Below the pieces are notes generated by a model. The model saw only the letters and a program-made list of their open reading frames with translations. It did no database searches and had not been told where the DNA came from. A program made the translations under genes and the position numbers. Of a DNA stretch of 64,000 nt, positions 5,981 to 51,595 are shown piece by piece (position 1 is the stretch's first letter; every line of letters starts with the position of its first letter). The stretch comes from Escherichia coli (GTDB lineage Bacteria > Pseudomonadota > Gammaproteobacteria > Enterobacterales > Enterobacteriaceae): the NCBI RefSeq assembly GCF_017348835.2, contig NZ_CP072315.1, one strand, 5' to 3'.

Positions 5981-5989
5981 GGAGTCCCC

Positions 5990-8441: not shown

Positions 8442-8451
8442 GGAGAAACCC

Positions 8452-32702: not shown

Positions 32703-32724
32703 GACATCCCCTTAATTAATAAAA

Positions 32725-34293: not shown

Positions 34294-34310
34294 CGTAAGA
34301 TTTAGCCTGC

Positions 34311-35519
34311 TTAAAGGGTTAGTGGTTCAATAGGCTGAAAAATGAAGGTACTGCTCATCTTTCGAATAACCGGGTGATCGCCTAACGCTTCAACCGGATC
34401 AATGTGTTCTAAGCCTGCAAAATTTACTGACGACATCTGGCTGCGACTGCATTTGCAGGACAGGATATACTCATCCTCCAGATAGCCGGTCCGCTTACTG
34501 ACCCGTTGCGTAAAGCCTGACACAATCACGTTGTCGAACGGTAGCGTATGTAAAACGATACCGACCAGGCGGAACAAGCAGCCATGGACGTGGCGGGCAT
34601 AGTTTTCGCGTACGGCTTTTTGCGTCATGGCTTTTTCCGTCAGCTCCGTGCCCCGGGCATTAACGCCGTAAATCTTATCAGGGAAATCTTCAATCTCAGC
34701 TAAATCAACATCCAGCAGGACTGCTGATAGCTCCGGCTTTACTTCAAATGCAACAAGCGTTTCACGCGGCCATTCAGTTTCTGCCAGCACACCCGCCAGG
34801 TATGATTCGAAAAACGCGGCGTCTGTCCGGAACTGCTGCCGGGCATCTGCCTGAGCCGTGGCGAGCCGTTTTTCATGTTCTTCAGCCTCAAACTTCCAGT
34901 TTGCATACTGTTCGGCCCAGGCCGTCCGTTGTTGCTGGTACCGGTGCTGTCGAAGGGTATTCTCACGCTCCACATCAATCAGCTCCTGCTGCCACCGGCG
35001 AAGATTTTCGGCGTGGCGCTCAGCTTTAGCTGATTCCGATTCAAACCATTTACCCAGAAAACTAATGCCTTCGCTCTCGGCAGGCTTTTCCGGCAATGCA
35101 AGATAGTCTGGCTTTTCTGGACGCACCGGTGCCGGAACCTGAAAAGGCGACGTTCTGTTATGCAGGTATACTGCTTCCAGCTCTGCCCAGCTGATGCCTG
35201 TTTTAGGATCCGGCGTCAGCTCGTGAATATTACGGATTGCGGTCACCGCTGACATGAGATCAGCGGCTTCCTCCTCAAGCGCCTGTCTGAGCCCCGGGTC
35301 GGTAGCCGTCCGGTTCCCACCTCCGGAACGCGCGGCCCGATCAAGCCGGGTACGGTAACTCAGCCCGGTACCGGGCAAGCCCAGATTGGCATAGGTCCCC
35401 CGGCTTCCAAAAGAAACGGAAGCACCTCTCGGCCCGACACTCAGGCTCGGTGCACCGTTACTCAGGTTGAGGCGAACACCAGGAATAATGTTGATCGACT
35501 TTCTGAATCTGAACCCCAT
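34311..35519 (-). CDS. Hypothetical protein with DUF4236-like N-terminus
   Basis: N-terminal MGFRFRKSINIIPGVRLNLS typical of that uncharacterised family (recalled); coiled-coil middle; last gene of the biosynthetic operon. Confidence 0.5.
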   Translation of the reverse strand: MGFRFRKSINIIPGVRLNLSNGAPSLSVGPRGASVSFGSRGTYANLGLPGTGLSYRTRLDRAARSGGGNRTATDPGLRQALEEEAADLMSAVTAIRNIHELTPDPKTGISWAELEAVYLHNRTSPFQVPAPVRPEKPDYLALPEKPAESEGISFLGKWFESESAKAERHAENLRRWQQELIDVERENTLRQHRYQQQRTAWAEQYANWKFEAEEHEKRLATAQADARQQFRTDAAFFESYLAGVLAETEWPRETLVAFEVKPELSAVLLDVDLAEIEDFPDKIYGVNARGTELTEKAMTQKAVRENYARHVHGCLFRLVGIVLHTLPFDNVIVSGFTQRVSKRTGYLEDEYILSCKCSRSQMSSVNFAGLEHIDPVEALGDHPVIRKMSSTFIFQPIEPLTL

Positions 35520-35529
35520 TATGATTTCC

Positions 35530-36489
35530 TTAATGATGCTGGGTCACGGTAAGTAATCTGATTCCATCAGCGCTTTGCTCGTTCTGTAACCCATAAAAAC
35601 GAGCTCTGTCCAGAATGCCAGCCGCCCAGCGGCGATGTGTGGCGGGTTCACACATTGCTCCCTGCGACTTAAACACGGCCTGGGTAGAGTTCAGGATCCG
35701 CAGAGCGTCAGAATGCTCACCCTGAGTGACCATCAGCGCGTTTTGAATGACCTCTATCTGACCCGGGTGAATGGCCGTTTTCCCAACAAGCCCATGTGCC
35801 ATATCAAGAGCCAGCTCTCTGGCCATTACGGCATGATCGTCAATATGCTCACATACGGGCGCGGTCAGGGCAAAATCACGCGGGCCGAAGACCGAAACGA
35901 GCATTTTGATGACGTAGCCCATCGGGCTGTCATACAGCGTCAGGTCCCGGGGACGGCGAAGCGACACAACGTTCATAAGATCGTTGCCGCCGATTCGAAG
36001 CGCAATAATGCGGTCGTGGCAGGGATGTTCCACCAGACGGGTGGCCAGCTCCCGCATCTGAACCACGTCAAAGACGTCTTCTGTTTCCAGCGTTGGCATC
36101 ATGCACAGGTGAGTCCCGCCCATGATATCCCACCATTCAGCTAACGAACTGAGGGTAAATTTCGGCAACACAAACCCGTCGACAGCGGAAAGATCATAAT
36201 GCGCTTTTAACCATCTGCCCATTTCGGCATGCCGGGGGCGAATGAACACCAGAGGCCAGTCATTTTTACCCAGGCTATGCATGCTGTTACTGAGCTCGTG
36301 CAGCAGGTGCTCCAGATTTTTGAGGGCGACGGGGATGTCTGCTTCACTGACAGCATCCTCCAGGCAAATCACCAGAGAGCGCAAACCCGGGATTTTCCCG
36401 TGCAGGACGGCATCAGCAATATCTTCCCGTGTTGCAGGCATGTATAGCGTGGCTCCCAGATTCCAGGGAGAAAGACGATTTTTCATCAA
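35530..36489 (-). CDS. HpcH/HpaI aldolase / citrate-lyase beta (CitE)-like enzyme
   Basis: TIM-barrel lyase-like motifs (LRIGGNDL, GKTAIHPGQIEV); stop/start overlap with upstream gene. Confidence 0.7.
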   Translation of the reverse strand: MMKNRLSPWNLGATLYMPATREDIADAVLHGKIPGLRSLVICLEDAVSEADIPVALKNLEHLLHELSNSMHSLGKNDWPLVFIRPRHAEMGRWLKAHYDLSAVDGFVLPKFTLSSLAEWWDIMGGTHLCMMPTLETEDVFDVVQMRELATRLVEHPCHDRIIALRIGGNDLMNVVSLRRPRDLTLYDSPMGYVIKMLVSVFGPRDFALTAPVCEHIDDHAVMARELALDMAHGLVGKTAIHPGQIEVIQNALMVTQGEHSDALRILNSTQAVFKSQGAMCEPATHRRWAAGILDRARFYGLQNEQSADGIRLLTVTQHH

Positions 36490-37565
36490 AGTACCTTCTT
36501 GATAATGGTTACAGCCCGATACTGGCCGAGGGTTCCCCCCATTTCTGTAACAACTATTCCCTTTTCACGAGCAAGCCCTACAAGCAAGGCAACGTCCGAG
36601 TCGTCAATAGAACGCACAAATACATGGTCCGGTACCCGACGTAATACAGCCCGGGTTGCTTCAGCAATACCGGGTTTTATACGATTGACGCTGTCCACTT
36701 TAAATTCATCGGCCAGGAACGCGATAACGTCGCGACTTGTCTGCCATAAGACCCGGGCTGACTCCGTATTCCAGCTCAGGGGAGCGAGGGATGACGGGGT
36801 TAACTTCTTACGGAAATGAGCGACGGTATCGACAAGCATCCGGCTGCATTCGAATTCACTGAGATGCTCGCAAACCATGCACCCGTGTAATCCTTCAGAG
36901 GACCACACTGACCGGGAGATCAGGCCTGACACCGGCGCACCCATGATGCCAAAAGGAATGAGCCAGTCATCATCACTGGCTGCAAGCCAGGAGCAGCCAC
37001 AGGGATCGGCCAGGACAACCAGTCGCGGCTGCTCAGGATAGCCCGGGCGATCTTTCAGTGCGCGTACAAGCTCTCCGGTAATTGCGCCTTTACCTGTCCA
37101 TCCGTCAACAAAGACAATACCGCTGGTACCATGCCGCTCTTCAATGACGTCGAGGGCTGCACCGTCAATTCCACGATCCCGGATAATGCTGATACCGTAA
37201 TGCCATGAGGTTTTCCCCATGTCACGCAGGGCCTGGTGCAGCATAACGCCGAGCGGCACGCCAGCCCTGACAAGACTGGCCAGTACAATGGGCTCATCAC
37301 CAAAGCGTTTGGCCAGAGCAATAGCGAGCTGTGTGACTTCTTTTGCAAGTCTCTCTGCGCCCCGATCCAGCGCCCGGTGAAACAAATCAAGATGCCATTG
37401 TGTTGGCGCTGGCTCCTGACTGAGCATGTCCGAATAATGTTTCTTCCCTGACTGAATCAGCTCTTCTTTTTGCTCAACCGGCGTCATCTCAATGACAACC
37501 GGCTTTAGCAGAAATTCCACGTCACCGGGCTGGTATGAGCCGGTAAATGTGTCATGTGGCTGCAT
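36486..37565 (-). CDS. Ter-associated protein, phosphoribosyltransferase-like (annotated in databases, as I recall, as cysteine protease StiP family)
   Basis: VFVDGWTGKGAITG and DPCGCSWLAASDD; ATG at 37565 follows GGAG RBS and abuts the upstream stop. Family name from memory. Confidence 0.5.
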   Translation of the reverse strand: MQPHDTFTGSYQPGDVEFLLKPVVIEMTPVEQKEELIQSGKKHYSDMLSQEPAPTQWHLDLFHRALDRGAERLAKEVTQLAIALAKRFGDEPIVLASLVRAGVPLGVMLHQALRDMGKTSWHYGISIIRDRGIDGAALDVIEERHGTSGIVFVDGWTGKGAITGELVRALKDRPGYPEQPRLVVLADPCGCSWLAASDDDWLIPFGIMGAPVSGLISRSVWSSEGLHGCMVCEHLSEFECSRMLVDTVAHFRKKLTPSSLAPLSWNTESARVLWQTSRDVIAFLADEFKVDSVNRIKPGIAEATRAVLRRVPDHVFVRSIDDSDVALLVGLAREKGIVVTEMGGTLGQYRAVTIIKKVL

Positions 37566-37566
37566 T

Positions 37567-38340
37567 TTAATTTTCTCCAAAAATTCGCTGTGAAATGGCA
37601 TCTGCAAACTGACTCTGACGCGGGATGCCAAACCAGCTGCACAGTTTCATAAAACGATGATCGCTCAGGCTGTCGCCCAGGCCAATTACGGGGAAGACTC
37701 CGCGTTCAGCCCGAAGTTTTTCAAGCAGCCATCTGACTGCCAGCCCTTTCTCAACCGGGGTGGGAAGCCAGGCCACGTTATTACTGTTGCGGTGGATGTA
37801 GAAGCCCTCGGTCGGAAACACCGTTTCTATCTCATCTGCAATGGCATTAAGCTCGTCAAGGCGGGTGCTGTCGCGGTGCTTCATCACCATATAAACCGCC
37901 GTTTCACCGTATTCGAAGTTCAGCCTTGCCCAGGCATTGATCCCTTTTGCGTCCATCATTTCAGTGATCAGACGCTGCATCGATGTCAGCTTTTCCTGGT
38001 AGGGAGCCAGCTGGCCAAGCATATGGGCCTTCCACTCCTCGTCGGGTTTGCCTTCAGGCGTGAGAATGACGGCCCCGTGCGTGGTGATTGCCCAGGAGTG
38101 GAAAGGGATCCGGACGCGGCTGATTTCTTCAGTTCCCCGGGCGGTAACAGGTATGAGTTCAGCCTGCTCCAGGAGCCAGTCCACCAACATGGACTGTTCT
38201 TCCGTCATAAAGCTTCGTGGATTCAGGGTGCGATCAACGGCACCGGTACGGAATGGCTCCAGGGCCAGCTCGTCCACCATTTTACGACGGGTCTGAAAGA
38301 GCGTGTCGTCAAGGTCGCTCAGAACAACGGGTTTATTCAT
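37567..38340 (-). CDS. HAD-superfamily hydrolase
   Basis: Motif I VVLSDLDDTLF (DxD), C-terminal VIGLGDSLSD. ATG at 38340 overlaps upstream stop in the sequence ATGAATAAA. Confidence 0.7.
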   Translation of the reverse strand: MNKPVVLSDLDDTLFQTRRKMVDELALEPFRTGAVDRTLNPRSFMTEEQSMLVDWLLEQAELIPVTARGTEEISRVRIPFHSWAITTHGAVILTPEGKPDEEWKAHMLGQLAPYQEKLTSMQRLITEMMDAKGINAWARLNFEYGETAVYMVMKHRDSTRLDELNAIADEIETVFPTEGFYIHRNSNNVAWLPTPVEKGLAVRWLLEKLRAERGVFPVIGLGDSLSDHRFMKLCSWFGIPRQSQFADAISQRIFGEN

Positions 38341-39481
38341 AGGTAACAATCTCCACGACGGGCGCAACCTCAGCCAGGGCTTTAAGAAGCTGCGTGTCAA
38401 TACTTTCTGCGGGTGTCTCAGTACACACAAGAATACGGTCAAACTGCTGGTGGGCGACGTTATAGACAAAATTGGGGATGCCCAGCCCGTAGTTATCCGT
38501 AAAGGAAATGGCGGACTCAATGGCATAACCAACGGCGATAGGGGAGCGGGTGGTCGAACCATAAAGTGCCTGTGCTCCGGCAGCTTCGAGCCGTTCAGCA
38601 AGCAGGAACGGCTCCCAGACGAATTCCCCGGTCCCGAGAACCAGAATACGTTCCCCCTTGCGGACGGAGACCTCATGGCCGAGATCGGCCGCAGGTGCGA
38701 GCATCCCCAGTCGACCCCAGGACTGTTTTCCCAGGATGTCCCATTCTCCGCGTGAAGTTACGTTGACTTTCGGCATGTCCGGGACAGGTGCATCAGGTAA
38801 TGGGGTCCATCCCCACTGACCGCTTACAAGCGAAACCGAAGTGACGGGCAAGGATGTGCGCTCCGACAGGGCGTTGCTACTCCAGTCGGTAAGCGTAACG
38901 GCGATAACCTGTTCAATATGTTGAAGCTTGCCGGTATTACGCAGGGCAGAAAGCAGGTTAATAAAGGTATTACCGGTGGTTGCCTCGTCATCAATCAAAA
39001 CCAGCGTTCGTGCGTTGGTAACACGACGTCTTTTCTCTTCATCATCTGGCAGATAGATCAGATGATCGGTGGCGTGGCTGTGTTCTTCCTTGAACTCGCA
39101 AAGTAACGTGCCATCAACCGGGTGACGGGTAGAGGTCAGATAGACAGATTCACGATGCTGGTGGCGCACTTCATCAAACACACCGGCCCCTAGCCCAACG
39201 GCGGTTTCAGCCATACCGATAAAAAGTACGGGCCCTGTCAGCGTTGCGGGGAACTGGCTGGCAAGCTGTCTGTAGGCCTGCCGCATGACTGAGGGTGGCA
39301 CGGGAATGTGCCTGCCGAGTACTTTGCTGACAAACAGAAAGGCGCGTTTCGGGTTACGTCTTTCAGCGATATCAAACAGGTCATCGAGCGAAACATCACC
39401 CTGGTCGCGGGTTACCTGTATCGTACCGCATGAGAGGGTACGGCGATAAATCATATCTTCGAGGGTATCAGACATAAACAC
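38333..39481 (-). CDS. Phosphoribosyltransferase (PRTase)
   Basis: PRPP-binding loop TLVLIDDEATTGNTF. Confidence 0.75.
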   Translation of the reverse strand: MFMSDTLEDMIYRRTLSCGTIQVTRDQGDVSLDDLFDIAERRNPKRAFLFVSKVLGRHIPVPPSVMRQAYRQLASQFPATLTGPVLFIGMAETAVGLGAGVFDEVRHQHRESVYLTSTRHPVDGTLLCEFKEEHSHATDHLIYLPDDEEKRRRVTNARTLVLIDDEATTGNTFINLLSALRNTGKLQHIEQVIAVTLTDWSSNALSERTSLPVTSVSLVSGQWGWTPLPDAPVPDMPKVNVTSRGEWDILGKQSWGRLGMLAPAADLGHEVSVRKGERILVLGTGEFVWEPFLLAERLEAAGAQALYGSTTRSPIAVGYAIESAISFTDNYGLGIPNFVYNVAHQQFDRILVCTETPAESIDTQLLKALAEVAPVVEIVTYE

Positions 39482-39484
39482 GCC

Positions 39485-40543
39485 TTAATTCAGATGGTTA
39501 GAGAGTGATTCCGGGTAAACGATGACATCTGTGATGGATCTCACTGCAACCGGAGAAAAGGTATTTCTGGCGCTCTGGATCACCGCATCTTCAGACATCA
39601 GACCGAGCTTAAAGGCAGCAAACAACCCGGGAAGGTTCACCCCGCTGTGAAGGGTATAACCCACCCCGCCTGACGGACGCATGTTGGTTTCAAGCAGCAC
39701 CGGGTTGCCATTCACATCGTTTCGCGTCTGAACATTCACCAGCCCGTCGGCCTTCATAACCCGGGCGCAGTCACAAGCCAGTTCCCAGGCGCTTCCTTCG
39801 TTTACCAGATACTGGATAGCCCCTTCCTTACGGCGTCCCACGGCTGCGAGTATTTCGCCCTTATCCGCGAGGATATCGACGGAAAATTCCGGGCCTGGCA
39901 GGTACGGCATCAAAACAAGGGGTTTAAACGACTCAGAAGCCGATGCTGCTGCAATATACTGTTGCGGACTGACCAGACGATGTTCGGGATGATTAAAGAC
40001 GGCCATGGGCGAAGCACTGTCATCAAAGCGCCAGAATCCCATGCCATAGATACCCGTCACCGGCTTCACGCATACCGGGCTGTCCGAGAACGGCGGGGCC
40101 GCGAGGTGCGTCTTTAATTCTGCCAGCGTATTCACCCGCCAGGACGGTACGACCGGGAGCCCGTTTTGCTCCATAAACTGAGCAAAAGTAACTTTTTCGT
40201 CAGCCAGAGTTAACCAGTCGACGCCTGTTGCACCGGTAGTAAGGGTGGCTCCGGTCGATTCAATGGCTGAACGGTGTTCTTCAAACCACTGGCTGTTACG
40301 GCCAGTATGAATATGGTGGATGCCGTAGGTCTGAATGGTTTCCTGAATAAACTGAAGACGTTTTTGAGGATCTTCAGGTTCAGTCAAAGAATAATCGGCA
40401 ACGGAAAGAATTTCATGTCTTTCGTTACGGTGGGAGGCAAATACGGTAATAGCAAAATTATTTTTTTGTGCAAATGATTTTACCCCCTGAATAATATCTC
40501 GCTGGGAGGACAAACCTTCCATAAACCAAATTTTCTTGTTCAT
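39485..40543 (-). CDS. ATP-grasp enzyme
   Basis: ATP-grasp-like C-terminal motifs (VLLETNMRPSGG); first gene of the operon divergent from terZ. Confidence 0.7.
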   Translation of the reverse strand: MNKKIWFMEGLSSQRDIIQGVKSFAQKNNFAITVFASHRNERHEILSVADYSLTEPEDPQKRLQFIQETIQTYGIHHIHTGRNSQWFEEHRSAIESTGATLTTGATGVDWLTLADEKVTFAQFMEQNGLPVVPSWRVNTLAELKTHLAAPPFSDSPVCVKPVTGIYGMGFWRFDDSASPMAVFNHPEHRLVSPQQYIAAASASESFKPLVLMPYLPGPEFSVDILADKGEILAAVGRRKEGAIQYLVNEGSAWELACDCARVMKADGLVNVQTRNDVNGNPVLLETNMRPSGGVGYTLHSGVNLPGLFAAFKLGLMSEDAVIQSARNTFSPVAVRSITDVIVYPESLSNHLN

Positions 40544-40865
40544 TTTTTTTAATTATCCGGAACGCCATGCAAATTTATGATTGAGAAGTGAGTCTATGAG
40601 TGTCTACGCTACATGTCAATCATAATATGATTAATAACTTCAGTGGTTATGGAGTGCGTCAGTGTTTTTTTAGTGCCTTATAACGTATTGATATTTAAAT
40701 TAAAAATAGAAAAATGAACACCATGAAAAGGATTTATTTTTGTGTTTTTGAAGAAAACTACCAAAATTTCCCTTGTCAGAGAACTTCATCATGATATGAT
40801 TTTCTTCGTCAGTTACTAAATATACCTTTGATTGTCTCGGTCATTACCATTTTAAGGAATAAAAC

Positions 40866-41447
40866 ATGGTTTCATTAAGTAAGAACCAGACGGTATCACT
40901 CAGCAAAGAATCTTCAGCATTAAGCCAGCTTCAATTCGGTCTCGGTTGGGATCCGGTTAAGAAAAAAGGTCTTCTTGGAGGATTGTTTGGAGGCAACGAC
41001 TCAATCGATCTCGATGCTGGCTGCGTATTAATGGACAGCACCGGTAAAACAATTGACACCATCTGGTTCCGCAAACTGGAATCCACCTGCGGCGCTGTTG
41101 TGCACAGTGGCGATAACCTGACCGGTGAGGGTGACGGTGACGATGAGGTGATTAAGGTCAACCTCTCCCGACTGCCTGCAAACGTTGAATACCTGGCGTT
41201 TACGGTAAACAGCTTCCGTGGTCAGTCGTTCAATGACGTCGAAAACGCGTTCTGCCGCGTTGTCGATCAAACCGGCAAAGAGCTGGCTCGCTACAAGCTG
41301 ACTGAGCAGGGCTCACATACCGGGATCGTTATTTCTTCGCTGCGCCGTAATAACGGCAACTGGGACTTTACCGCCCTTGGCCATGCCTGTCGCGGCCGCA
41401 CAATTGACGATATGCACTCCGATATCGTTTCAGCGGTTATTCGCTAA
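40866..41447 (+). CDS. terZ: Tellurite resistance protein TerZ (TerD family)
   Basis: MVSLSKNQTVSLSK..., [20 protein letters not shown]; first gene of terZABCDEF. Confidence 0.85.
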   Translation: MVSLSKNQTVSLSKESSALSQLQFGLGWDPVKKKGLLGGLFGGNDSIDLDAGCVLMDSTGKTIDTIWFRKLESTCGAVVHSGDNLTGEGDGDDEVIKVNLSRLPANVEYLAFTVNSFRGQSFNDVENAFCRVVDQTGKELARYKLTEQGSHTGIVISSLRRNNGNWDFTALGHACRGRTIDDMHSDIVSAVIR

Positions 41448-42604
41448 TGAACCTGACGCCGGGGGGCAATGCCCCCGTTCCAGCCCAGGAGTTGCGGGTC
41501 CGGATCACCTCGGGCGGCCAGGTGGATGCTTCGGCGTTTCGCCTGTATGCCGACGGGAAGGTGCAGGGTGATGCGGACATGGTGTTTTATGGTCAGCCAC
41601 GTAACGATGATGGTACCGTCAGCCTGGTCAGTGAAGGCCAGTACTCAACCTTTACTGTCGCGCTCAACCGGCTGAAACCTGATGTCCAGAAAATTGCGTT
41701 CACCGTGACCTGTGACGGTGGGCAGACGGTGTCCGGTCTTCGTAATCTTTCCATCGACGTGGAGCAAGGGGCTACCGGCCTGGTTAGCGGCAGTGTCGAA
41801 CTGAGCGGCCGTCAGGAAGCAGCCTTAATTCTGGGTGAATTTTACCGTCGTAATAATGACTGGAAATTCCGCTTCGTTGCGCAGGGGTTCAACGGTGGAC
41901 TTAAACCGCTGGCAGAGCATTTCGGCGTAAATATTGCCGACGAACCGGCTCCCGCAGCCCCGACTCCTCCGGTTGTAACCCCTCCGCCAGTTGAGACAAA
42001 AATCAGCCTGAGCAAGGTATCGCTGACAAAAGAGAAGCCTGCAATCAGCCTGACCAAACGGGATAACTTCGGTGAAATCCGGATCAACCTGAACTGGCAC
42101 CGGGGCAGCGGCAAATCAGGCTTTGCAGGCATGTTCGGCTCCAAAGGAATCGACCTGGATCTGGGGGCCTTTGTTGAGCTTCAGGACGGGTATAAATCGG
42201 TCATTCAGGCGCTCGGTAATGCATTCGGTAATTATCGCGATGAACCGTATGTTCAGCTCAAGGGCGATGACCGGACGGGTGATGTATCAGACGGCGAGTG
42301 GCTGCATATCAATGGACGTGAATGGAAGCATATCCGCGAAGTGCTGATTTACGCCTTTATTTATGAAGGTGTTCCCAGCTGGGACAAGACTGATGGTGTG
42401 GTCACCATTCATGTGCCGGATCAACCGCCCATTGAGACCCGCCTGACCGAAGGTGAAAACCGTCGCACATTGTGCGCCATTGCCAGACTCGTAAACGAAA
42501 ACGGCGCAATTAAAGTCGAGCGAATTAACCAGTACTTCAAAGGCCAGGACGAAATGGACCGGGCATTTGGCTGGGGATTTCGCTGGAGCGCCGGTTCTAA
42601 ATAA
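41447..42604 (+). CDS. terA: Tellurite resistance protein TerA (TerD-domain containing)
   Basis: 385 aa, start overlapping terZ stop (TAATG); proline-rich linker PAAPTPPVVTPPPVE between TerD-like halves. Confidence 0.85.
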   Translation: MNLTPGGNAPVPAQELRVRITSGGQVDASAFRLYADGKVQGDADMVFYGQPRNDDGTVSLVSEGQYSTFTVALNRLKPDVQKIAFTVTCDGGQTVSGLRNLSIDVEQGATGLVSGSVELSGRQEAALILGEFYRRNNDWKFRFVAQGFNGGLKPLAEHFGVNIADEPAPAAPTPPVVTPPPVETKISLSKVSLTKEKPAISLTKRDNFGEIRINLNWHRGSGKSGFAGMFGSKGIDLDLGAFVELQDGYKSVIQALGNAFGNYRDEPYVQLKGDDRTGDVSDGEWLHINGREWKHIREVLIYAFIYEGVPSWDKTDGVVTIHVPDQPPIETRLTEGENRRTLCAIARLVNENGAIKVERINQYFKGQDEMDRAFGWGFRWSAGSK

Positions 42605-42626
42605 CACAGCAACAAAGGAAACAGGT

Positions 42627-43082
42627 ATGAGCTTTTTCGACAAGGTAAAAGGTGCCATTAACTCTGGCCGGGACGAACTGACCCGCCAGGTTGGTCGTTT
42701 CAAAAACAAAAAATTTATGCACGGCACCGTTGCTGTATGTGCCCGTATTGCCGTATCGAGTGACGGCGTGAGTTCGGAAGAAAAGCAGAAAATGATGGGC
42801 TTTCTTCGCTCTTCAGAAGAGCTGAAGGTCTTCGATACCAATGAGGTGATCGAGTTCTTCAATAAACTGGTTTCAAGCTTCGATTTCGATGTTGAAATCG
42901 GCAAGGGCGAAACCATGAAATACATCCTGGCGCTGAAAGATCAGCCTGAGGCCGCTCAGCTGGCCTTACGTGTTGGTATTGCCGTTGCGAAAAGTGACGG
43001 TAACTTCGATCAGGACGAGAAACTGGCCTCCCGCGAGATCGCTATCGCGTTGGGCTTCGACCCGGCTGAATTTGGCCTCTGA
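42627..43082 (+). CDS. terB: Tellurite resistance protein TerB
   Basis: 151 aa from ATG 42627 (RBS AAAGGAAACAGG); MSFFDKVKGAINSG N-terminus; track start is an RBS-less upstream extension. Confidence 0.85.
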   Translation: MSFFDKVKGAINSGRDELTRQVGRFKNKKFMHGTVAVCARIAVSSDGVSSEEKQKMMGFLRSSEELKVFDTNEVIEFFNKLVSSFDFDVEIGKGETMKYILALKDQPEAAQLALRVGIAVAKSDGNFDQDEKLASREIAIALGFDPAEFGL

Positions 43083-43104
43083 TCCACATCCCTAAGGGTA
43101 AAAT

Positions 43105-44145
43105 ATGGTTTCCACACACATCGGCTTCCCGACTGAAACGGTCATTGTTTTCATTGCGCTTTCAGTCGGTGCCATCTTTATTGACCTGTTTATGCACCGT
43201 GATGACAAGCCCATTTCCCTGAAGAGTGCGGCGCTCTGGTCCGTATTCTGGGTTGTGGTTGCGATGGCATTTGCCGGTTTCCTCTACATCCACCACGGTG
43301 CTGAGGTTGCCAGCCTGTTTGTAACGGGTTATGCGCTGGAGAAAGTGCTGTCGGTCGACAACCTGTTTGTCATGATGGCCATCTTCTCCTGGTTCGCCGT
43401 TCCTGATCGTTACCGCCACCGTGTTCTCTACTGGGGGATCATTGGTGCCATCGTCTTCAGGGGCATCTTTGTCGCCATCGGTACGAGCCTGCTGAGTCTG
43501 GGGCCGTATGTTGAAGTTGTCTTCGCTATCATCGTCGCCTGGACGGCGGTCATGATGCTTAAAAGCGGTGATGACGATGATGAAATTGAGGATTATTCCC
43601 AGCATCTGGCTTACCGCATGGTTAAACGCTTCTTCCCTATCTGGCCGAAGCTCAGAGGTCATGCTTTCCTGCTTAACCAGAAGGAAGTGGATGCCGAACT
43701 GGCGAAACCAGAAAACAGCGATGTCACCATTGGCCGTGGTAAAAAGGCGGCGCTGTATGCGACCCCTCTGTTCCTGTGTGTGGCCGTGGTTGAACTCTCG
43801 GATGTTATGTTTGCGTTTGACTCGGTACCGGCAATCATTGCCGTCAGTCGTGAACCGCTTATCGTCTATAGTGCCATGATGTTTGCTATCCTGGGCCTGC
43901 GTACTCTGTACTTTGTCCTTGAAGCACTGAAACAGTACCTGGTTCATCTGGAGAAGGCCGTTATCGTGCTGCTGTTCTTCATCGCGGCAAAACTGGGCCT
44001 GAATGCGACCGATCACATTTGGCATCATGGTTACAGCATCGCGGCGACAACCAGCCTGTATGTTGTACTGGGTGTTTTGGCGCTGGGCATTCTCGCAAGC
44101 GTCATATTCCCGGGCAAACCTGAATCTGAGGAAAAGGGGAGCTGA
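43105..44145 (+). CDS. terC: Integral membrane protein TerC
   Basis: Multi-pass membrane protein (~9 hydrophobic helices) in the canonical position. Confidence 0.9.
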   Translation: MVSTHIGFPTETVIVFIALSVGAIFIDLFMHRDDKPISLKSAALWSVFWVVVAMAFAGFLYIHHGAEVASLFVTGYALEKVLSVDNLFVMMAIFSWFAVPDRYRHRVLYWGIIGAIVFRGIFVAIGTSLLSLGPYVEVVFAIIVAWTAVMMLKSGDDDDEIEDYSQHLAYRMVKRFFPIWPKLRGHAFLLNQKEVDAELAKPENSDVTIGRGKKAALYATPLFLCVAVVELSDVMFAFDSVPAIIAVSREPLIVYSAMMFAILGLRTLYFVLEALKQYLVHLEKAVIVLLFFIAAKLGLNATDHIWHHGYSIAATTSLYVVLGVLALGILASVIFPGKPESEEKGS

Positions 44146-44193
44146 TCCCCTGAAGTGTTAACCTGAACAATTACTAATCGAAGAGGTTATTTT

Positions 44194-44772
44194 ATGAGTG
44201 TTTCTCTTTCCAAAGGCGGGAACGTCTCCCTGAGTAAAGCAGCTCCGTCAATGAAAAACGTCCTGGTGGGCCTTGGCTGGGATGCGCGTTCAACAGACGG
44301 TCAGGACTTTGACCTGGATGCTTCAGCATTCCTGCTGGCCGCAAATGGCAAAGTGCGCGGCGATTCAGATTTCATCTTCTATAACAACCTGACGTCATCT
44401 GACGGTTCCGTAACCCATACCGGTGATAACCGTACCGGTGAAGGTGATGGTGATGATGAATCGCTGAAAATTAAACTGGACGCCGTCCCGTCTGATGTTG
44501 ACAAGATCATCTTCGTTGTCACTATCCATGATGCTCAGGCTCGTCGCCAGAGCTTTGGTCAGGTATCCGGTGCGTTTATTCGCCTGGTCAATGACGATAA
44601 CCAGACTGAAGTCGCTCGCTACGATCTGACCGAAGATGCGTCCACTGAGACTGCCATGCTGTTCGGCGAGCTGTATCGCCACAATGGTGAGTGGAAATTC
44701 CGCGCAGTGGGCCAGGGTTATGCTGGTGGTCTGGCATCTGTATGTGCTCAGTACGGCATTAACGCGTCCTGA
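44194..44772 (+). CDS. terD: Tellurite resistance protein TerD
   Basis: 192 aa, [35 protein letters not shown]. Confidence 0.9.
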
Positions 44773-44839
44773 TCGAAAAGTAACTTTTCACCCGGGGCTG
44801 TTAATGCAGCCCTCATTCAACTGTTTGCAGGAGCTAAAA

Positions 44840-45415
44840 ATGGCAGTTTCTCTCGTAAAAGGCGGCAACGTATCTCTGACCAAAGAAGCACCAACCATGA
44901 ATATCGCTATGGTTGGCCTCGGCTGGGATGCCCGTGTAACTGACGGTCAGGCTTTTGACCTGGACGCTTCCGTGTTCGCAGTAGGCGAAGACGGTAAAGT
45001 GCTGTCAGATGCGCATTTCATTTTCTTCAATAACAAAACCAGCCCTGATGGCGCGGTAGAGCACCAGGGCGACAACCGTACCGGTGAAGGCGACGGTGAC
45101 GATGAGCAGGTCAAAATCGATCTGACCAAAGTCTCAGCAGATATCAAAAAACTGGTGTTTGCCGTTACCATCTATGATGCAGAAGCGCGTAAACAAAACT
45201 TCGGCATGGTGAGCAACAGCTTCATGCGCGTTTACAACAACGACAACGGCACGGAAATTGCCCGTTTCGATCTGTCTGAAGATGCCTCAACCGAAACCGC
45301 TATGGTCTTCGGTGAACTGTATCGTCATGGCGCTGAGTGGAAGTTTAAAGCTGTCGGTCAGGGCTTTGCCGGTGGCCTGGCGGCTCTTGCCTCCCAGCAC
45401 GGCGTTAACATCTAA
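44840..45415 (+). CDS. terE: Tellurite resistance protein TerE (TerD paralogue)
   Basis: 191 aa from ATG 44840 (RBS GCAGGAGC); [30 protein letters not shown]. Confidence 0.9.
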
Positions 45416-45432
45416 AACAACGCTGAATCATA

Positions 45433-45457
45433 CCCCGGCAATGCCGGGGTTTTTTTT
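45433..45457 (+). terminator. Intrinsic terminator after terE
   Basis: CCCCGGC-aat-GCCGGGG followed by an 8-T run. Confidence 0.75.
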
Positions 45458-45843
45458 GGTTGCGATCCGCTTTCAGGAGGGAGTAGTAGAAAGGGGACTG
45501 GAAATTTCAGAAAGCAGGTCATGTTAATTCAGACCTGAGCCTTTTAAAGGCAGGAAACGGATTTATCTCTGGTTGCTGGTTAAAGCCGGTATTCCGTGCC
45601 TTTTATCAACAGAATGCCCCTCTGATATATGTTACTTTTGCGGTTTATGAAGGAACGGGATCTGGAACATAAGATACCCGGTCAATCAAAATTCCAGTTC
45701 AACAGGTATAGAAACTTCAGCGTGATGAAATATGGTGTCACACCATATATACGCCTCACCAGAAATCCAGCGTCCTGAACTAAGCCTGGGGAACATATAT
45801 AAGCGCTGCGCTTTAAAAATAATCAAAAATCAGGAGAGTTAAT

Positions 45844-47085
45844 GTGAATCTACAATCCGGACAAAACATACCGCTTCAGCAATCTGCGATCAGGCTGAAT
45901 CTTCAGTACCCTGCCAAATCCGGCTTTAAAGGCGAACCCGATACCTGCCTCTTCCTGCTTAATGCTCAGGGAAAGGTAACCGGCGATTCTGACTTTATCT
46001 TTTATAATAATCTGTCTTCTCCTGAAGGGGCAGTAAAGCTCGTTACCGGTTCTCAGCAGTCCAGCATTGAGATAGCACTGGATCGTGTTCCGGCGAACGT
46101 CAGTAAGATTGCGATCACCGTTGTCATTGATGGTGAAGATACTATCAGTGGGCTCAGTTTATTGAGCATTCAGGCTCCTGGTATCGCTGATTTTCAGGCT
46201 GAGACTCAGGGCCGCAGTGAGAAAGCAATCATCCTGGGTGAAGTATATCGGCACAATGGCGCCTGGAAGCTTCGTGCGCTCGGGCAGGGTTTCAACGGTG
46301 GTCTTGAGCCTCTGGCCATTAGCTTTGGCGTTGATGTCGCACAGCCAGCTCCGCAGCCAGCAAAGCCTGCTCGTATCAGTCTGGAAAAGAAACTTGAAAC
46401 CAGATCTCCGCGCCTCGTAAGCCTCGCTAAAAAAGCCTCGGTCAGTCTCACTAAAAATAAACTGGACACCCTTGAGGCAGCGGTTGCATTTGTACTTGAC
46501 GCATCCGGCTCAATGAGTGGCCAGTTCAGTAAGGGCAACGTTCAGTCTGTGCTGGACCGCATCGCCGTTCTTGCCGCCCAGTTCGACGACGACGGTGAAA
46601 TGGATGTCTGGGGATTTGGAGAGAAGCACAAGAAGTATCCAAACGTCACACTGGACAACCTGGACACATATATTCAGTCCATTCGCGGGTCTGGAAAGCG
46701 TTCAGCCTGGGAGAACCTGCCGGGACTTGGTGGGACAAACAATGAGCCCCCTGTGATGGAAGAAATTGTCGACTACTTTAAGGACTCGAAAATCCCGGTA
46801 TATGTTGTATTTATTACCGATGGCGGGATCAGCAAGACCCGGGCGATTAAAGATGCAATCCGGCGTTCTGCCAACTACCCCATCTTCTGGAAGTTTGTCG
46901 GCCTGGGTGGTTCAAGCTACGGTATCCTCAAAAATCTGGATGACTTTACTGACCGCCGGGTTGATAACACCCACTTCTTTGCCATGGATGATTTCGGTTC
47001 GATCAGCGATGAAAAGTTATATGATAATTTACTGGAAGAATTCAGACCGTGGATCGATGAAACAAAAAGGTTAGGCATCCTGTAA
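45844..47085 (+). CDS. terF: TerF: TerD-domain + C-terminal vWA-like domain, GTG start
   Basis: N-terminal TerD-like region, C-terminal VLDASGSM and FITDGG; GTG at 45844 preceded by AGGAGA RBS; own promoter region after the terE terminator. Confidence 0.8.
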
Positions 47086-47113
47086 TACGCACAGTTTTCG
47101 CATGGTTAAAGGA

Positions 47114-47147
47114 GCTCTACAGCAGCTTAATACTGTAGAGCCTTTGT
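47114..47147 (+). terminator. Hairpin downstream of terF
   Basis: GCTCTACAG-(10 nt)-CTGTAGAGC then CTTTGTT; U-tract weak. Confidence 0.4.
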
Positions 47148-47175
47148 TCACTGGAAATCGTACAGGGAGGAGCAT

Positions 47176-47307
47176 ATGGACCGCATCAAGTACCTGAAAT
47201 GGATAGCTGAAGAATCACCAACTGATGATGAAATCGACAACTACGATAGTATCATTAGTCGGGGCGCAGAAAGGGCCGAGAAGGTTCAGTTGTCTTTAAG
47301 ACGTTAA
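47176..47307 (+). CDS. Possible small protein (43 aa)
   Basis: ATG preceded by GGGAGGAG at ideal spacing; below the 60-aa track cut-off; no homology recognised. Confidence 0.3.
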   Translation: MDRIKYLKWIAEESPTDDEIDNYDSIISRGAERAEKVQLSLRR

Positions 47308-47647
47308 TATACGGGAGTTTAAATGTTCGCAGAAATCAAAGATAATTATTCGTTAGGTGGATAAAGAAAGGTTGCCATTACCAGCTTTCGACGAGTCGAA
47401 AATAAAAACCTTATTTATAGTGACAGGGAGTATGAGCTGACGCTTGCCAATGGAACAATAATTAAAAATGTACTTAGAAAAGAAGAGTGGGAACTGTTAG
47501 AAAGCAATTCAATTAAGGTTATATTATAACGAAAATATATTTACAGTTTTGGATAGGTTTCAAACGAGTCCGGACATTTGTACCTGAAGTATCTGACATT
47601 ACAGTTAAGTGACGATTATGCCAGCACGTCTGTTGCTGGCAGCTTAG

Positions 47648-47929
47648 CTATCGGTCTAAAAGCTGATCCATTAATAATTCTTCGTAAAGCCCAGAGGTAT
47701 CGGGCTTTATTACAATATCCGTTATTTCGAAGCGTTCAAGTACAAATTGCAGATATTCCGGAGTAACGTAGTAGGGATCAGGTTCAGCCAGATTAGTATA
47801 GAGTGGGTCTTCTGCTGCATTAATGTCATAATCAATGCACATATGAAACCACTGCAAAGGTGGATCCCAGCCTAACATCACCTGAACAATTCCCTGATTG
47901 CTTTTCACCTCATACCAGTGCTGGCTCAT
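47648..47929 (-). CDS. Hypothetical protein (93 aa)
   Basis: ORF only; no motif recognised. Confidence 0.4.
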   Translation of the reverse strand: MSQHWYEVKSNQGIVQVMLGWDPPLQWFHMCIDYDINAAEDPLYTNLAEPDPYYVTPEYLQFVLERFEITDIVIKPDTSGLYEELLMDQLLDR

Positions 47930-47978
47930 ACTTAGTCCTTAAGAAAATTTGTCATCGGAAAATAACACGAAGCCTGCA

Positions 47979-48170
47979 TCATCGAGGCGCATAACCTTCT
48001 TCCCTTAACGCCTGTTGTAATTTATCAACTGCGCTTTTCATTACCCAGGCTTCTTCGTCACTCACAGCACAACCACGTAGATCGCTCCAGCTCAGACGTT
48101 TAACAAATTGAGCAAGGGCCATAGTTTCGTTCTCATCAAGCCGCAAACTCAGTGTCTCAATACCTTCCAC
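47979..48170 (-). CDS. Hypothetical small protein (63 aa)
   Basis: ORF with RBS (aaggaggttagattgtgg on the minus strand); no motif recognised. Confidence 0.35.
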   Translation of the reverse strand: MEGIETLSLRLDENETMALAQFVKRLSWSDLRGCAVSDEEAWVMKSAVDKLQQALREEGYAPR

Positions 48171-48261
48171 AATCTAACCTCCCTTATAATGAAAAATGGC
48201 GCTTTACTTCTGACCAGATGCCGAAGCCTTGAATGCAGCCGGAACTGTCGTTGTTTCTACT

Positions 48262-48633
48262 TTACAGAAATGGAATTAAAAAGTGGTGATGCTGGGCACG
48301 TTTCTTTTCCAGCCGGGGTTTAAGCCAGAGCTGAAACTCATTCAACTTCTCAGCAGCCAAAACCGCTTCAACGGGGAAAACTTTATATTTACCCTGTTGC
48401 TGAGGTTCACCCAGCCATCGCCTGATGGCTCCGTCAGTCCATAAACGAGTCTCTTTTAGCCTAGTTACAGTGACCCATTTTCTGGACCATTCATCAAATT
48501 GTCGCTGGCGATCCCGATAACGTTGTTCTTCCTGCTGCCGAAGCCACTCGCGATCAACAGCAAATTTTCGGTATCCAACAAAGAGCCCTTGTACTTTGGC
48601 CATGTCATATTCCGGTTGCTTAGAGTTACTCAT
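48262..48633 (-). CDS. Hypothetical protein (123 aa), basic/Arg-rich
   Basis: ORF only; Arg/Gln-rich helical central region. Confidence 0.4.
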   Translation of the reverse strand: MSNSKQPEYDMAKVQGLFVGYRKFAVDREWLRQQEEQRYRDRQRQFDEWSRKWVTVTRLKETRLWTDGAIRRWLGEPQQQGKYKVFPVEAVLAAEKLNEFQLWLKPRLEKKRAQHHHFLIPFL

Positions 48634-48975
48634 TCAACCAAAACCTAAACGTCGATACAAACTCTGTTTCATAACCAGGGTTTTATCCTTACCGCGACAG
48701 TAAGTAACAGGGGCTGCATAAACCGGTCATTTAGTCCGTTATGCAAAAATTATTGAGGATCCGGGCTGTTAAACTGTTCTTCCTCTTTCGCTTCCGGTGA
48801 AAAGGGGAGGTGTCACCCTGCGAGCCCGTGTAGTGAAAGGGATTCGTCGTAATACAGGCCAAAGGCTAACATGACCGCAAAGGACGCCCGGGCGACCGGA
48901 TACCTGCCGGGTTGTGCGATGTAAAATCCGGAAGCAGTGATAACACAAACAGGCCCCTACAGCGTAAGGATTGTG

Positions 48976-49368
48976 ATGGACGATAAAGAGCAGTTTACGA
49001 ATCTTGTGGCAAAGCATGCCTCCGGACTCACCGAAGAGCAGCTGGCCGGGTACGATGCCTGTTCCCTGGATGGTGAATGCGTCACGCCTTCATACGAGGT
49101 TTTCCGGGGGTATCGTACCCGCCACACACTGGATGAATTTCTGGAGATGGCCATATCGCTGAATGCCATCCACCCGGATGAATATTTAACGGATATGCTG
49201 CTGAAGCCTCATGAGGTGATCGGCGCTCTGGCCGATGAAGGCGACCAGCTGAACAACGCCACCCCGGTTTATTTCTTTCCGGATACCGGCGTCTATGCAG
49301 CGGCCGTTAGTGAAACCCGGGTGCTCGATGCCTGGCTTTGCTGGCCATGCTACCCGGCGAACTGGTAA
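48976..49368 (+). CDS. Hypothetical protein (130 aa)
   Basis: ATG at 48976 with AAGGA RBS; track start 48937 is GTG. Confidence 0.45.
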   Translation: MDDKEQFTNLVAKHASGLTEEQLAGYDACSLDGECVTPSYEVFRGYRTRHTLDEFLEMAISLNAIHPDEYLTDMLLKPHEVIGALADEGDQLNNATPVYFFPDTGVYAAAVSETRVLDAWLCWPCYPANW

Positions 49369-49436
49369 CGCGGCCGTTGGAATTGCACCGGCCGGATACG
49401 AATTTAACCGATCCCGTGGCGGGAAGGCTATCAGAG

Positions 49437-49689
49437 TTGCATGTCCTCATCCCTCAAGCCCCCTGCCAGGCCCCAACGTGCTGTCAGGCTTCGCCTGATT
49501 CCCGATCTGCGCCGATACTTCAGCCGATAACTTTTTGTTTTCTTTTTATTTTCTTCCCATTTCCTCAAAAATCGCGGGCGGCGTGGACAGGGCACCATTG
49601 CCGCATGTGGGGTCTTAATAAGGGCAGGGTGGTCAGTTTTGCTCGATGCCATGGGTAGGCCCTCCCCTTCATGGGATGAGGACATGCAA
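49437..49689. repeat. Element bounded by perfect 17-bp terminal inverted repeats (MITE-like or large stem-loop)
   Basis: TTGCATGTCCTCATCCC at 49437-49453 and its exact reverse complement at 49673-49689, ~220 bp apart, with no convincing ORF inside. Confidence 0.5.
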
Positions 49690-49842
49690 GTAAGCTAACT
49701 ATCTGAAATGACGAAGGTTCATTTGGTGAATGTCGCTTCATATTAATGTTGTGTCACTTATGATCGTATGTAGCTGGTTGCAAAGAGGAGCGATGAGACA
49801 ATAAAGTTGTATCGCTAACAAGATTTATGCTGCCACATAGTA

Positions 49843-49941
49843 ACAGCCTAAAAGTTGTACGCCCTATTTAACAGCTTTTAGGCTGTTAATTTGATATTAC
49901 AGCTTTTAGGGTGTATGTTTAGGAAACAGCCTGCAAGGTGT
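49843..49941 (+). promoter_or_regulatory. Four evenly spaced operator-like repeats upstream of hipB
   Basis: ACAGC-N6-GTTGT (49843), ACAGC-ttttag-GCTGT (49871, perfect palindrome), ACAGC-ttttag-GGTGT (49899), ACAGC-ctgcaa-GGTGT (49926); spacing 27-28 bp, ending 28 nt before the hipB ATG. Confidence 0.6.
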
Positions 49942-49968
49942 ATCAGAGGAAACTACTGAGGCCAGCTT

Positions 49969-50265
49969 ATGATCAATAATGATTACCCGTTAAACACGCT
50001 CAACCAGCTGCGTCCCTTGCTCATTGGTTTTCGCAAGGCGAATGGCCTGACGCAAAAAGACCTGTCCGAAAGGTTAGGCGTCACTCAACAGACATACTCA
50101 CGTCTGGAAGCCAACCCTGCCAGTGCGAGCATTGAACGGCTATTCAAGGTGTTTTCCATCCTGGGCGTAAAAATCAGCTTCTCCTCGGCAACCACCTCTT
50201 CAGAGAGGAAGCAGACGGAAGAAATGCTTAAATCAAACTCACCTGCACGACAGGAGGATTGGTAA
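49969..50265 (+). CDS. hipB: HipB antitoxin (XRE-family HTH repressor)
   Basis: 98 aa; LIGFRKANGLTQKDLSERLGVTQQTYSRLEANP matches HipB helix-turn-helix; 4 nt upstream of hipA. Confidence 0.85.
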   Translation: MINNDYPLNTLNQLRPLLIGFRKANGLTQKDLSERLGVTQQTYSRLEANPASASIERLFKVFSILGVKISFSSATTSSERKQTEEMLKSNSPARQEDW

Positions 50266-50269
50266 CGAT

Positions 50270-51595
50270 ATGAGCCGGAAACAGCAACGTCTGGTAATTT
50301 GGATGAACGGCATCAAAGTCGGGTACTGGGAAAAAAGCAAAGGGGTAGACAGCTTAGAATACCTTCCTGAATGGGTTGCTGACGAACAGGGAAGGCCGCT
50401 GTCATTGTCCCTTCCTTTTACTCCCGGGAACCAGGTCTGGCGTGGAAATGTGGTACGTGACTATTTTGATAATTTACTGCCGGACAGCGAAGGCATACGC
50501 AGACGTCTGGCAATGCGTTACAAGGCCGATAGCCTGGAGCCTTTTGATCTGCTGACGGAGCTGGGAAAAGACTGCGTGGGCGCGATACAGCTGCTTCATG
50601 ACGGAGATGAACCCACTGATTTATATTCCGTGAAGTATCACCCGCTTACTGAATCAGAAATTGCGGCAACTTTGCGTAATACCACGGAGACATTGCTACC
50701 GGGCAGGCCAGAAGATAACGACGACTTACGTTTATCTATTGCCGGTGCTCAGGAGAAAACAGCCCTACTGTGGCATGAAGATCGGTGGTGTATGCCGGAG
50801 GGTAATACACCAACGACGCATATATTCAAGCTACCGCTCGGACTTGTGGGGAACATGAAAGCCGACATGAGCTCGTCGGTTGAAAATGAATGGCTCTGCT
50901 CGGTACTTCTCGGCCAGTACGGGCTCCCCGTGGCAAGAACGCAGATTGCTCACTTTGAAGATCAGAAAGCGCTGGTGGTAGAACGTTTTGACCGAAAATG
51001 GTCAGGAGACGGACAATGGATCATTCGTTTACCCCAGGAGGATATGTGTCAGGCCCTGGGCGTTTCGCCATTACGAAAATATCAGGCGGACGGCGGGCCA
51101 GGTATATCGGAAATTATGGAGGTTCTGAGTAATTCAGACCGTGCTGAGCGTGACAAAGCGCAGTTTTTTATGACGCAGATAATTTTCTGGATGATGGCCG
51201 CAACAGATGGCCACGCTAAAAATTTCAGTATTTCTATTGGGCCACAGGGACGTTATCACCTTACACCAAACTATGATGTGTTGTCGGCATGGCCGGTGAT
51301 CGGTCATGGGAACAATCAGATATCCTGGCAGAAGTGCAAACTGGCGATGGCCGTACGTGGCAGTAGCAACTATTACCAGATATATCGAATACAACGACGC
51401 CACTGGATCAGGCATGGTGAGATAACCGGCCTGAGTAAACAGCAGACAGAGGCGATGATAGAGGAAATCATCGCCAGAACCCCGGGTGTCATTGAACGTG
51501 TTAGCGGGCTTCTTCCGGACCAGTTCCCCCAGCAGCTTGCGGAAAGTATTTTTGATGGAATGAGGCAGCAATGCAGGCGCCTGGCTGAGAAATGA
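50270..51595 (+). CDS. hipA: HipA-family Ser/Thr kinase toxin
   Basis: 441 aa; blocks shared with E. coli HipA (PLSLSLP, FDNLLPDS, SIAGAQEKTALL, ATDGHAKNFS, RLPQEDMCQ). Confidence 0.9.
   Translation: MSRKQQRLVIWMNGIKVGYWEKSKGVDSLEYLPEWVADEQGRPLSLSLPFTPGNQVWRGNVVRDYFDNLLPDSEGIRRRLAMRYKADSLEPFDLLTELGKDCVGAIQLLHDGDEPTDLYSVKYHPLTESEIAATLRNTTETLLPGRPEDNDDLRLSIAGAQEKTALLWHEDRWCMPEGNTPTTHIFKLPLGLVGNMKADMSSSVENEWLCSVLLGQYGLPVARTQIAHFEDQKALVVERFDRKWSGDGQWIIRLPQEDMCQALGVSPLRKYQADGGPGISEIMEVLSNSDRAERDKAQFFMTQIIFWMMAATDGHAKNFSISIGPQGRYHLTPNYDVLSAWPVIGHGNNQISWQKCKLAMAVRGSSNYYQIYRIQRRHWIRHGEITGLSKQQTEAMIEEIIARTPGVIERVSGLLPDQFPQQLAESIFDGMRQQCRRLAEK

Follow-up and report, generated by a model that had tools for sequence, protein, structure and literature searches.

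Is the tellurite-resistance cluster of a large enterobacterial plasmid a complete and ordinary copy of terZABCDEF, and does its last gene, terF, belong with the six genes in front of it? The question is raised here by a window of 64,000 nt from Escherichia coli (contig NZ_CP072315.1; all positions follow the numbering of the whole window), in which seven plus-strand open reading frames (ORFs) at 40866-47085 correspond to terZ, terA, terB, terC, terD, terE and terF. The locus is very probably (probability about 0.9) the canonical "ter-type 2" terZABCDEF of IncHI2 plasmids, an operon type that was placed on these plasmids by Nguyen et al. (PMC8193136). As such, it is an already known and intact locus, a copy of the cluster long associated with tellurite resistance, phage inhibition (Phi) and colicin resistance (PacB), and it is an ordinary finding, being intact and having exact counterparts on hundreds of plasmids sequenced before. 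Within this cluster terF is a separable module, set off from terE by a conserved terminator.

Identity of the Locus and Its Plasmid Context

The seven ORFs follow each other in the order Z-A-B-C-D-E-F on one strand and have the domain content expected of an R478-type cluster. None of them is interrupted and their lengths equal those of the R478 genes, so that the genes are intact, in agreement with the preliminary description of this DNA. The region from 40500 to 47300 (6.8 kb) is 100% identical at the nucleotide level, over its full length, to many IncHI2A plasmids, and 701 plasmid records match it with at least 99% identity. The best match is a conjugative E. coli plasmid typed as IncHI2A, as inspection of the record revealed, and the other top matches are large E. 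coli or Salmonella plasmids. Of 5426 complete E. coli genomes, 943 contain the terE-terF junction, as do about 2,500 plasmid records.

Comparison with plasmid R478 (IncHI2, Serratia marcescens, NC_005211) reveals the same gene order and gene lengths, the same GTG start of terF, the same terminator after terE, a 428-bp spacer containing the same palindrome, and the same island context, with proteins that are 97.8-99.7% identical over their full lengths. By contrast, the nucleotide sequences diverge by 0.1-3.3% per gene and by 8.4% in the spacer, and downstream of terF about 650 bp (47222-47877) are replaced, such that a hypothetical ORF of 151 amino acids (aa) in R478 corresponds to one of 43 aa in the window (47176-47307). 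Together with the IncHI2A backbone, this orthology bears out the earlier assignment of the cluster to the type known from the IncHI2 plasmid R478. The complete ter island spans about 27135-47085 and its remaining genes lie divergently, upstream of terZ on the opposite strand. These comprise a biosynthetic operon with ATP-grasp, PRTase, HAD-like, StiP, HpcH and DUF4236 genes (Pfam assignments), followed by terW, a terY-terX-terY group, and a triad of TerY-C, PP2C phosphatase and kinase genes, all of which match R478 gene for gene.

The chromosomal ter-type 1 loci of E. coli O157:H7 (SpLE1 or OI-43/48) and O104:H4 share the terminator and the spacer architecture with the window, and their TerZ to TerE proteins are 97-99.7% identical to those encoded here. 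They differ in that they sit in the chromosome within a prophage-like element, start terF with ATG, have a degraded palindrome and carry a poly-G tract after the terminator; in O157:H7, terF is additionally cut to 128 aa with loss of the vWA domain. More distant is the locus of the Klebsiella pneumoniae virulence plasmid (pK2044 type), which has the same seven genes, the divergent biosynthetic operon and the terminator after terE, whereas amino acid identity is only 68-97%, the gap between terE and terF is 88 bp, and a convergent HAD hydrolase gene follows terF.

Gene Organization and Domain Content

Five of the seven proteins, namely TerZ, TerA, TerD, TerE and TerF, match the Pfam TerD family (PF02342; E-values of 1e-33 to 3e-88; Table 1). 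A cluster-wide alignment locates an acidic loop in TerZ, TerD and TerE, where it is also visible at the DNA level as the repeat families D1 and D2; in the TerD structure 2kxt from Klebsiella, this loop forms the calcium sites. It is missing in TerF and in the N-terminal TerD domain of TerA, and is degenerate in the second, TerD-like half of TerA, which is itself degenerate according to the alignment.

TerC passes the NCBIfam model TIGR03718 (TerC/Alx metal homeostasis membrane protein) with 359.5 bits, compared to a cut-off of 246.4, a property it shares with the manganese exporters of the TerC/Alx/MeeF-MeeY group. In contrast to these, the terC gene of the window is embedded in an operon with genes for TerB and TerD-family proteins, and it has no yybP-ykoY manganese riboswitch (as found with alx, ykoY and yceF) or other Rfam element upstream, since a search of 36000-50000 with E-values of up to 1 returned two sub-threshold matches and no family at its gathering score.

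The genes from terZ to terE are tightly packed. The stop codon of terZ and the start codon of terA overlap within TAATG (a gap of -1), and the following gaps measure 22, 22, 48, 67 and, between terE and terF, 428 nt. The coupled starts ascribed earlier to the cluster as a whole are therefore found at the terZ/terA junction only. A candidate promoter for terZABCDE was located within the 322 bp that separate terZ from the divergent ATP-grasp gene.

Table 1. Features of the terZABCDEF locus in the window (identities refer to R478 proteins)
Feature	Position	Strand	Description
Candidate sigma-70 promoter for terZABCDE	40773-40800	+	TTGTCA-16-TATGAT with TG extension; 10/12 consensus matches only
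terZ	40866-41447	+	193 aa; single TerD domain with acidic loop; Pfam TerD 1.2e-46; 98.4% aa identity
terA	41447-42604	+	385 aa; Pfam TerD 3.8e-33 at residues 24-159; 99.7% aa identity
terB	42627-43082	+	151 aa; Pfam TerB 1.6e-20; 99.3% aa identity
terC	43105-44145	+	346 aa; integral membrane protein, TerC/Alx family; Pfam TerC 2.2e-42; 99.7% aa identity
terD	44194-44772	+	192 aa; TerD domain with acidic calcium-binding loop; Pfam TerD 3.4e-88; 99.0% aa identity
terE	44840-45415	+	191 aa; terD paralogue; Pfam TerD 1.2e-85; 99.0% aa identity
Predicted intrinsic terminator	45432-45458	+	ACCCCGGCaatGCCGGGGT followed by T8
terE-terF spacer	45459-45831		Non-coding, weakly constrained
Palindrome	45730-45748		ATATGGTGTcACACCATAT; perfect, 9+1+9
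Shine-Dalgarno sequence	45832-45836	+	AGGAG; unchanged in R478, O157 and O104; 7-nt distance to the terF GTG
terF	45844-47085	+	413 aa; GTG start; TerD 1-161 and vWA 212-412; 97.8% aa identity

The Terminator After terE

Downstream of terE, a hairpin at 45432-45450 with an 8-bp stem, of which seven pairs are G-C, is followed by eight T residues that run to 45458. The fold energy of this element is -15.9 kcal/mol, with a z-score of -3.2 compared to shuffled sequences, so that the strong terminator described earlier between terE and terF is found again. It combines what is expected of an intrinsic terminator, a G+C-rich hairpin and a U-run located 3' of a stop codon, and efficient termination in vivo may be predicted from this arrangement. 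The terminator is invariant in R478, O157:H7 and O104:H4, and the CCCCGG/CCGGGG stem with its T-run was also kept after terE in an Enterobacter IncHI1B, a Raoultella IncF and a Klebsiella IncFIB plasmid, although the ter genes of these three loci are only 68-97% identical to those of the window. The terminator is a real sequence element and is shared by four diverged ter lineages.

A sub-threshold Rfam match to anti-hemB (45385-45457; 24.8 bits compared to a gathering score of 49.5) covers the last part of terE together with the terminator, and not the spacer. A structured RNA in this region was rejected, the only two Rfam matches in 36000-50000 (E-values of up to 1) being sub-threshold and one of them lying over the terminator.

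The terE-terF Spacer

The stop codon of terE and the start codon of terF are separated by 428 nt, and about 385 nt remain between the end of the T-run and the GTG, close to the 390 bp given previously. The nucleotide identity of the spacer is 91.6% to R478 and about 85% to O157 and O104, as compared to 94-99% for the genes. Over its 428 nt, the spacer differs from O104 by 15.5%, about as much as terE and terF do at synonymous sites (dS of 0.15-0.25), and it is therefore largely unconstrained except for the terminator and the ribosome-binding region. Its most variable part lies just past the terminator, where R478, O157 and O104 share a run of G residues, differing in length from 9 to about 18, that is missing in the window; the site corresponds to alignment columns of about 80-113 and is equivalent to 45478-45510 of the window.

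A hidden gene or gene remnant in the spacer was rejected. The one sizeable ORF, of 49 aa (45629-45778), is cut by a stop codon in O157 and O104, and no similarity to a 216-aa gene found at the same junction in Enterobacter was detected by tblastn or blastn. A 21-nt direct repeat (40722-40742 and 45551-45571, 81% identical) is likely to have arisen by chance.

Comparison across lineages shows that the terE-terF junction is a variable slot. In the window, R478, O157 and O104, it consists of 428 nt (422-431 nt) of non-coding DNA, in Klebsiella and Raoultella of 88 nt, of which about 45 nt separate the terminator from the start codon, while in the Enterobacter asburiae IncHI1B plasmid NZ_OQ821061 a gene for a predicted membrane protein of 216 aa is inserted (5335-5985 of the extracted locus).

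At 45730-45748, 96 nt upstream of terF, the spacer also contains a palindrome that occurs only once in the window (0.02 occurrences expected by chance). R478 has the same sequence at this site, and O157 and O104 have it with two mismatches. The palindrome overlaps the -10 element TATGGT (45731-45736) of a weak promoter candidate, TAGAAA-16-TATGGT (45709-45736; 8/12 class), and it may represent an operator. An operator common to the spacer and the region upstream of terZ was also considered and found no support, as there is no second copy of the palindrome in the window, even with three mismatches allowed.

Expression of terF

The preliminary description assigned terF to a transcript of its own. 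What stands of this is the separation of terF from terE by the terminator; a separate transcript as such is put in doubt by the lack of a promoter with at least 9/12 consensus matches, by the weak conservation of the spacer and by the 88-bp gaps in other lineages. Between a promoter of its own and read-through, the latter is somewhat favoured because of these 88-nt junctions. Because terF lies beyond the terminator, TerF levels are probably lower and in part uncoupled.

That terZABCDEF is a single operon ending with terF, in which the terminator after terE acts as a partial attenuator that would lower the stoichiometry of TerF, has about an even chance of being correct. The same terminator is located within the short terE-terF gap of Klebsiella and Raoultella, and the spacer of the window is without a convincing promoter, since no plus-strand sigma-70 promoter reaches 9/12 consensus matches and the best candidates of a relaxed scan reach 8/12. 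Expression data are available from Klebsiella, in which quantitative reverse-transcription PCR showed that Te(IV) induces terZBCDE and Mn(II) induces terBCDE, neither of them inducing terF, whereas Zn(II) induces all genes (PMC12054061). The joint induction of terZABCDEF by zinc fits a single operon, as does the polarity assumed in Klebsiella, where a mutation in terC was taken to be polar on terD, terE and terF (PMC8115787). By contrast, terF did not track terBCDE under induction by tellurite or manganese, and a stem with seven G-C pairs followed by eight T residues would be expected to terminate efficiently.

The latter two points, that is, the strength and conservation of the terminator and the partly uncoupled induction of terF in Klebsiella, could instead be explained if terF were transcribed independently, from a promoter within the 428-bp spacer, possibly controlled via the palindrome. 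This explanation is tentative and falls short of even odds. The spacer offers about 385 bp of room for a promoter, the -10 element of the TAGAAA-16-TATGGT candidate coincides with a perfect palindrome found nowhere else in the window, and in Pseudomonas citronellolis terF is physically apart from the other ter genes, on the other strand. However, the plus-strand promoter candidates do not exceed 8/12 matches, O157 and O104 have a degraded palindrome, the spacer has diverged at about the rate of synonymous sites, and the roughly 45 nt between terminator and start codon in Klebsiella and Raoultella, as well as the polarity attributed to the Klebsiella terC mutation, speak against it.

Domain Architecture of TerF

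As previously stated, terF starts with GTG; this codon lies at 45844 and is preceded by the AGGAG sequence. R478 uses GTG as well, whereas the chromosomal copies use ATG. The protein consists of a TerA-type TerD domain (residues 1-161), a proline-rich linker and a vWA domain (residues 212-412; vWA-TerF-like, PF10138, 2.6e-69), which bears out its earlier description as a TerD-vWA fusion. Residues 1-197 are 41% identical to residues 1-205 of TerA (E = 4e-40), and, unlike the domains of TerZ, TerD and TerE, this one has no acidic calcium loop. Both by sequence and by fold (Foldseek), TerF matches the TerD structures 2kxt and 3ibz.

In the vWA domain, D219, S221 and S223 of the DxSxS motif, as well as D326, are invariant in seven homologues with identities down to 43%, while the canonical threonine (T297) is not conserved in the Pseudomonas homologue. 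With the DxSxS motif and a downstream acidic residue on the beta4 strand, the domain is predicted to contain a metal ion-dependent adhesion site (MIDAS). The vWA domain also scores above the cut-off of the Pfam Copine family (36.3 bits compared to 27; residues 234-397), and it shares with eukaryotic copines such as Arabidopsis BON1 (PDB 6kxu and 6kxk) the copine-type vWA and the layout of a beta-sandwich followed by a MIDAS vWA domain. However, neither of the two N-terminal C2 domains expected of copines was found in TerF, its beta-sandwich being the TerD domain without calcium loop, and the full-length model superposes poorly on the copine (root-mean-square deviation of 14-18 A). By sequence, TerF thus appears copine-like in its vWA domain without being a copine. 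An AlphaFold2 model was built from a shallow alignment of seven sequences, and in a Foldseek search with this model the best PDB matches after the TerD structures were the plant copine BON1 and the copine-like vWA domain of RGLG; these matches are only suggestive because of the low confidence of the model.

Proposed Role of the Ter Proteins

The tellurite, Phi and PacB phenotypes named in the preliminary description are those of R478, and agree with the report of Whelan (1995) as far as it is cited in later work (PMC12054061; PMC8193136). According to the same work in the form cited in PMC12054061, transposon insertions in terZ, terC and terD abolish or reduce the three phenotypes, whereas insertions in terE and terF leave all three unaffected, and the classic phenotypes therefore do not involve TerF. 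The minimal set for tellurite resistance is terC with either terD or terE, the toxicity of which is relieved by terA or terZ (PMC8779313), and in E. coli K-12 the genes terZ-F suffice to confer tellurite resistance (PMC8115787). In Klebsiella, deletion of terC reduced the resistance to Te, Zn and Mn and led to larger phage plaques (PMC12054061).

Literature and family membership suggest the following model, in which terZABCDE would form one tight operon, transcribed from the divergent region upstream of terZ as far as the conserved terminator. The functional core would consist of TerC, a membrane metal transporter of the TerC/Alx family, and a calcium-binding TerD-type protein, either TerD or TerE, with TerZ and TerA modulating this core and relieving its toxicity. 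TerB would act as a membrane-proximal partner, such that the TerD-type proteins and TerB are placed on the cytoplasmic face of TerC and the Ter proteins form a membrane-associated complex for metal sensing and metal handling. Tellurite resistance, reduced plaque formation and colicin resistance may then be side effects of this complex. TerF, expressed by read-through of the terminator, from a weak or activator-dependent promoter, or both, would be an accessory and MIDAS-dependent adaptor outside of the resistance core, most likely a metal-dependent protein-protein adaptor for the Ter complex.

Several points weigh against this model. The role of TerF is deduced from domain content only, and the AlphaFold2 model of the protein is of low confidence (mean predicted local distance difference test score of 63.5). 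For its expression, neither the scan at the 9/12 threshold nor the relaxed scan identified a promoter in the spacer. The phenotypes of the cluster are known from the R478 and Klebsiella literature only, and the direct findings for the copy in the window are gene identity, integrity, domain content, the terminator and conservation. Moreover, none of the seven Ter proteins matches any defence model of PADLOC-DB 2.0.0 at E-values of up to 0.01, so that the phage-inhibition phenotype is not explained by any catalogued system.

The lack of PADLOC matches also bears on the proposal that anti-phage defence is the primary role of the cluster and tellurite resistance a by-product, which we regard as unlikely, though worth weighing. 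The Phi phenotype of R478 maps to terZ, terC, terD and in part to terA (Whelan, 1995, as relayed by citing papers), plaques are larger on the Klebsiella terC mutant, and the cluster travels on plasmids and prophage-like elements beside other conflict genes. By contrast, the effect in Klebsiella is mainly on plaque size, the cluster also provides Zn and Mn resistance as well as gut fitness, and members of the TerC family are metal transporters.

A more elaborate reading would have terF of IncHI2 plasmids independently regulated from a weak promoter that is gated by a dimeric DNA-binding protein at 45730-45748, and TerF acting as the bacterial counterpart of a copine: a vWA adaptor, dependent on metal, that would bring a partner to the Ter membrane complex in a situation outside of the tellurite, Phi and PacB assays. 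Taken as a whole, this combination is improbable.

Distribution and Selection of terF

TerF is the fastest-evolving of the Ter proteins, with 68% identity to Klebsiella as compared to 80-97% for the others. The ratio of non-synonymous to synonymous substitution rates (dN/dS) of terF versus O104 is nevertheless 0.073, and 0.027 in the part that encodes the vWA domain, values that indicate purifying selection on the gene. Purifying selection on a gene that is reportedly not needed for the classic phenotypes suggests that the classic assays miss its function. That terF is a decaying, functionless passenger, as its dispensability for the three phenotypes, its truncation in O157:H7 and the divergence of its product could suggest, is highly improbable in view of its dN/dS of 0.07, the invariance of the MIDAS motif and many vWA residues, and the presence of complete copies in R478, O104, Enterobacter, Raoultella, Klebsiella and Pseudomonas.

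The terF homology of O157:H7 stops at nucleotide 306 (about codon 102), and the resulting product of 128 aa is without vWA domain (7537-7923 of the extracted locus). The truncated gene adjoins a transposase fragment and iha, whereas O104:H4 keeps the full gene of 413 aa. On the megaplasmid pRBL16 of P. citronellolis, the gene for a TerF homologue (43% identity) runs convergently to a DUF4236 gene, about 3 kb from terZABCDE and on the opposite strand (7001-9561 of the extracted locus). The ter operon therefore does not always include terF. A convergent gene for a HAD-family hydrolase follows terF in the extracted loci of Klebsiella (7270-7920), Raoultella (7580-8227) and Enterobacter IncHI1B (7390-8070), and is absent from the IncHI2 window.

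Other Genes Near the Cluster

At the far end of the ter island, the minus-strand triad at 27135-31337 encodes a protein with vWA and TerY-C domains, a PP2C phosphatase and a protein kinase, and resembles the "TerY-P" defence system. When compared to PADLOC 2.0.0, these three genes matched no TerY-P model and gave weak matches to generic kinases only. TerW (33829-34293, minus strand) has weak matches to regulators of the helix-turn-helix (HTH) or WYL type (Pfam HTH_11, 6e-4; PADLOC WYL, 4e-5), which would fit a role as DNA-binding regulator of the island. According to the annotation of an identical plasmid, a pair made up of a HipB-like HTH regulator and a toxin of the HipA family (49972-51595) lies about 3 kb downstream of terF and is followed by a gene for an HNH endonuclease.

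Significance

The ter cluster is widespread, has been linked to gut fitness and virulence, and is of diagnostic use via tellurite-containing selective media. The copy in the window is a standard example of this cluster and gives no new leverage on its mechanism, and the added value of its analysis is modest. It consists, firstly, in the observation that the terminator after terE is conserved across lineages, whereas the terE-terF junction that follows it is variable, and secondly, in the description of TerF as a TerA-type TerD domain without calcium loop joined to a copine-like vWA domain, encoded by a gene that is under purifying selection despite being dispensable for the classic phenotypes.

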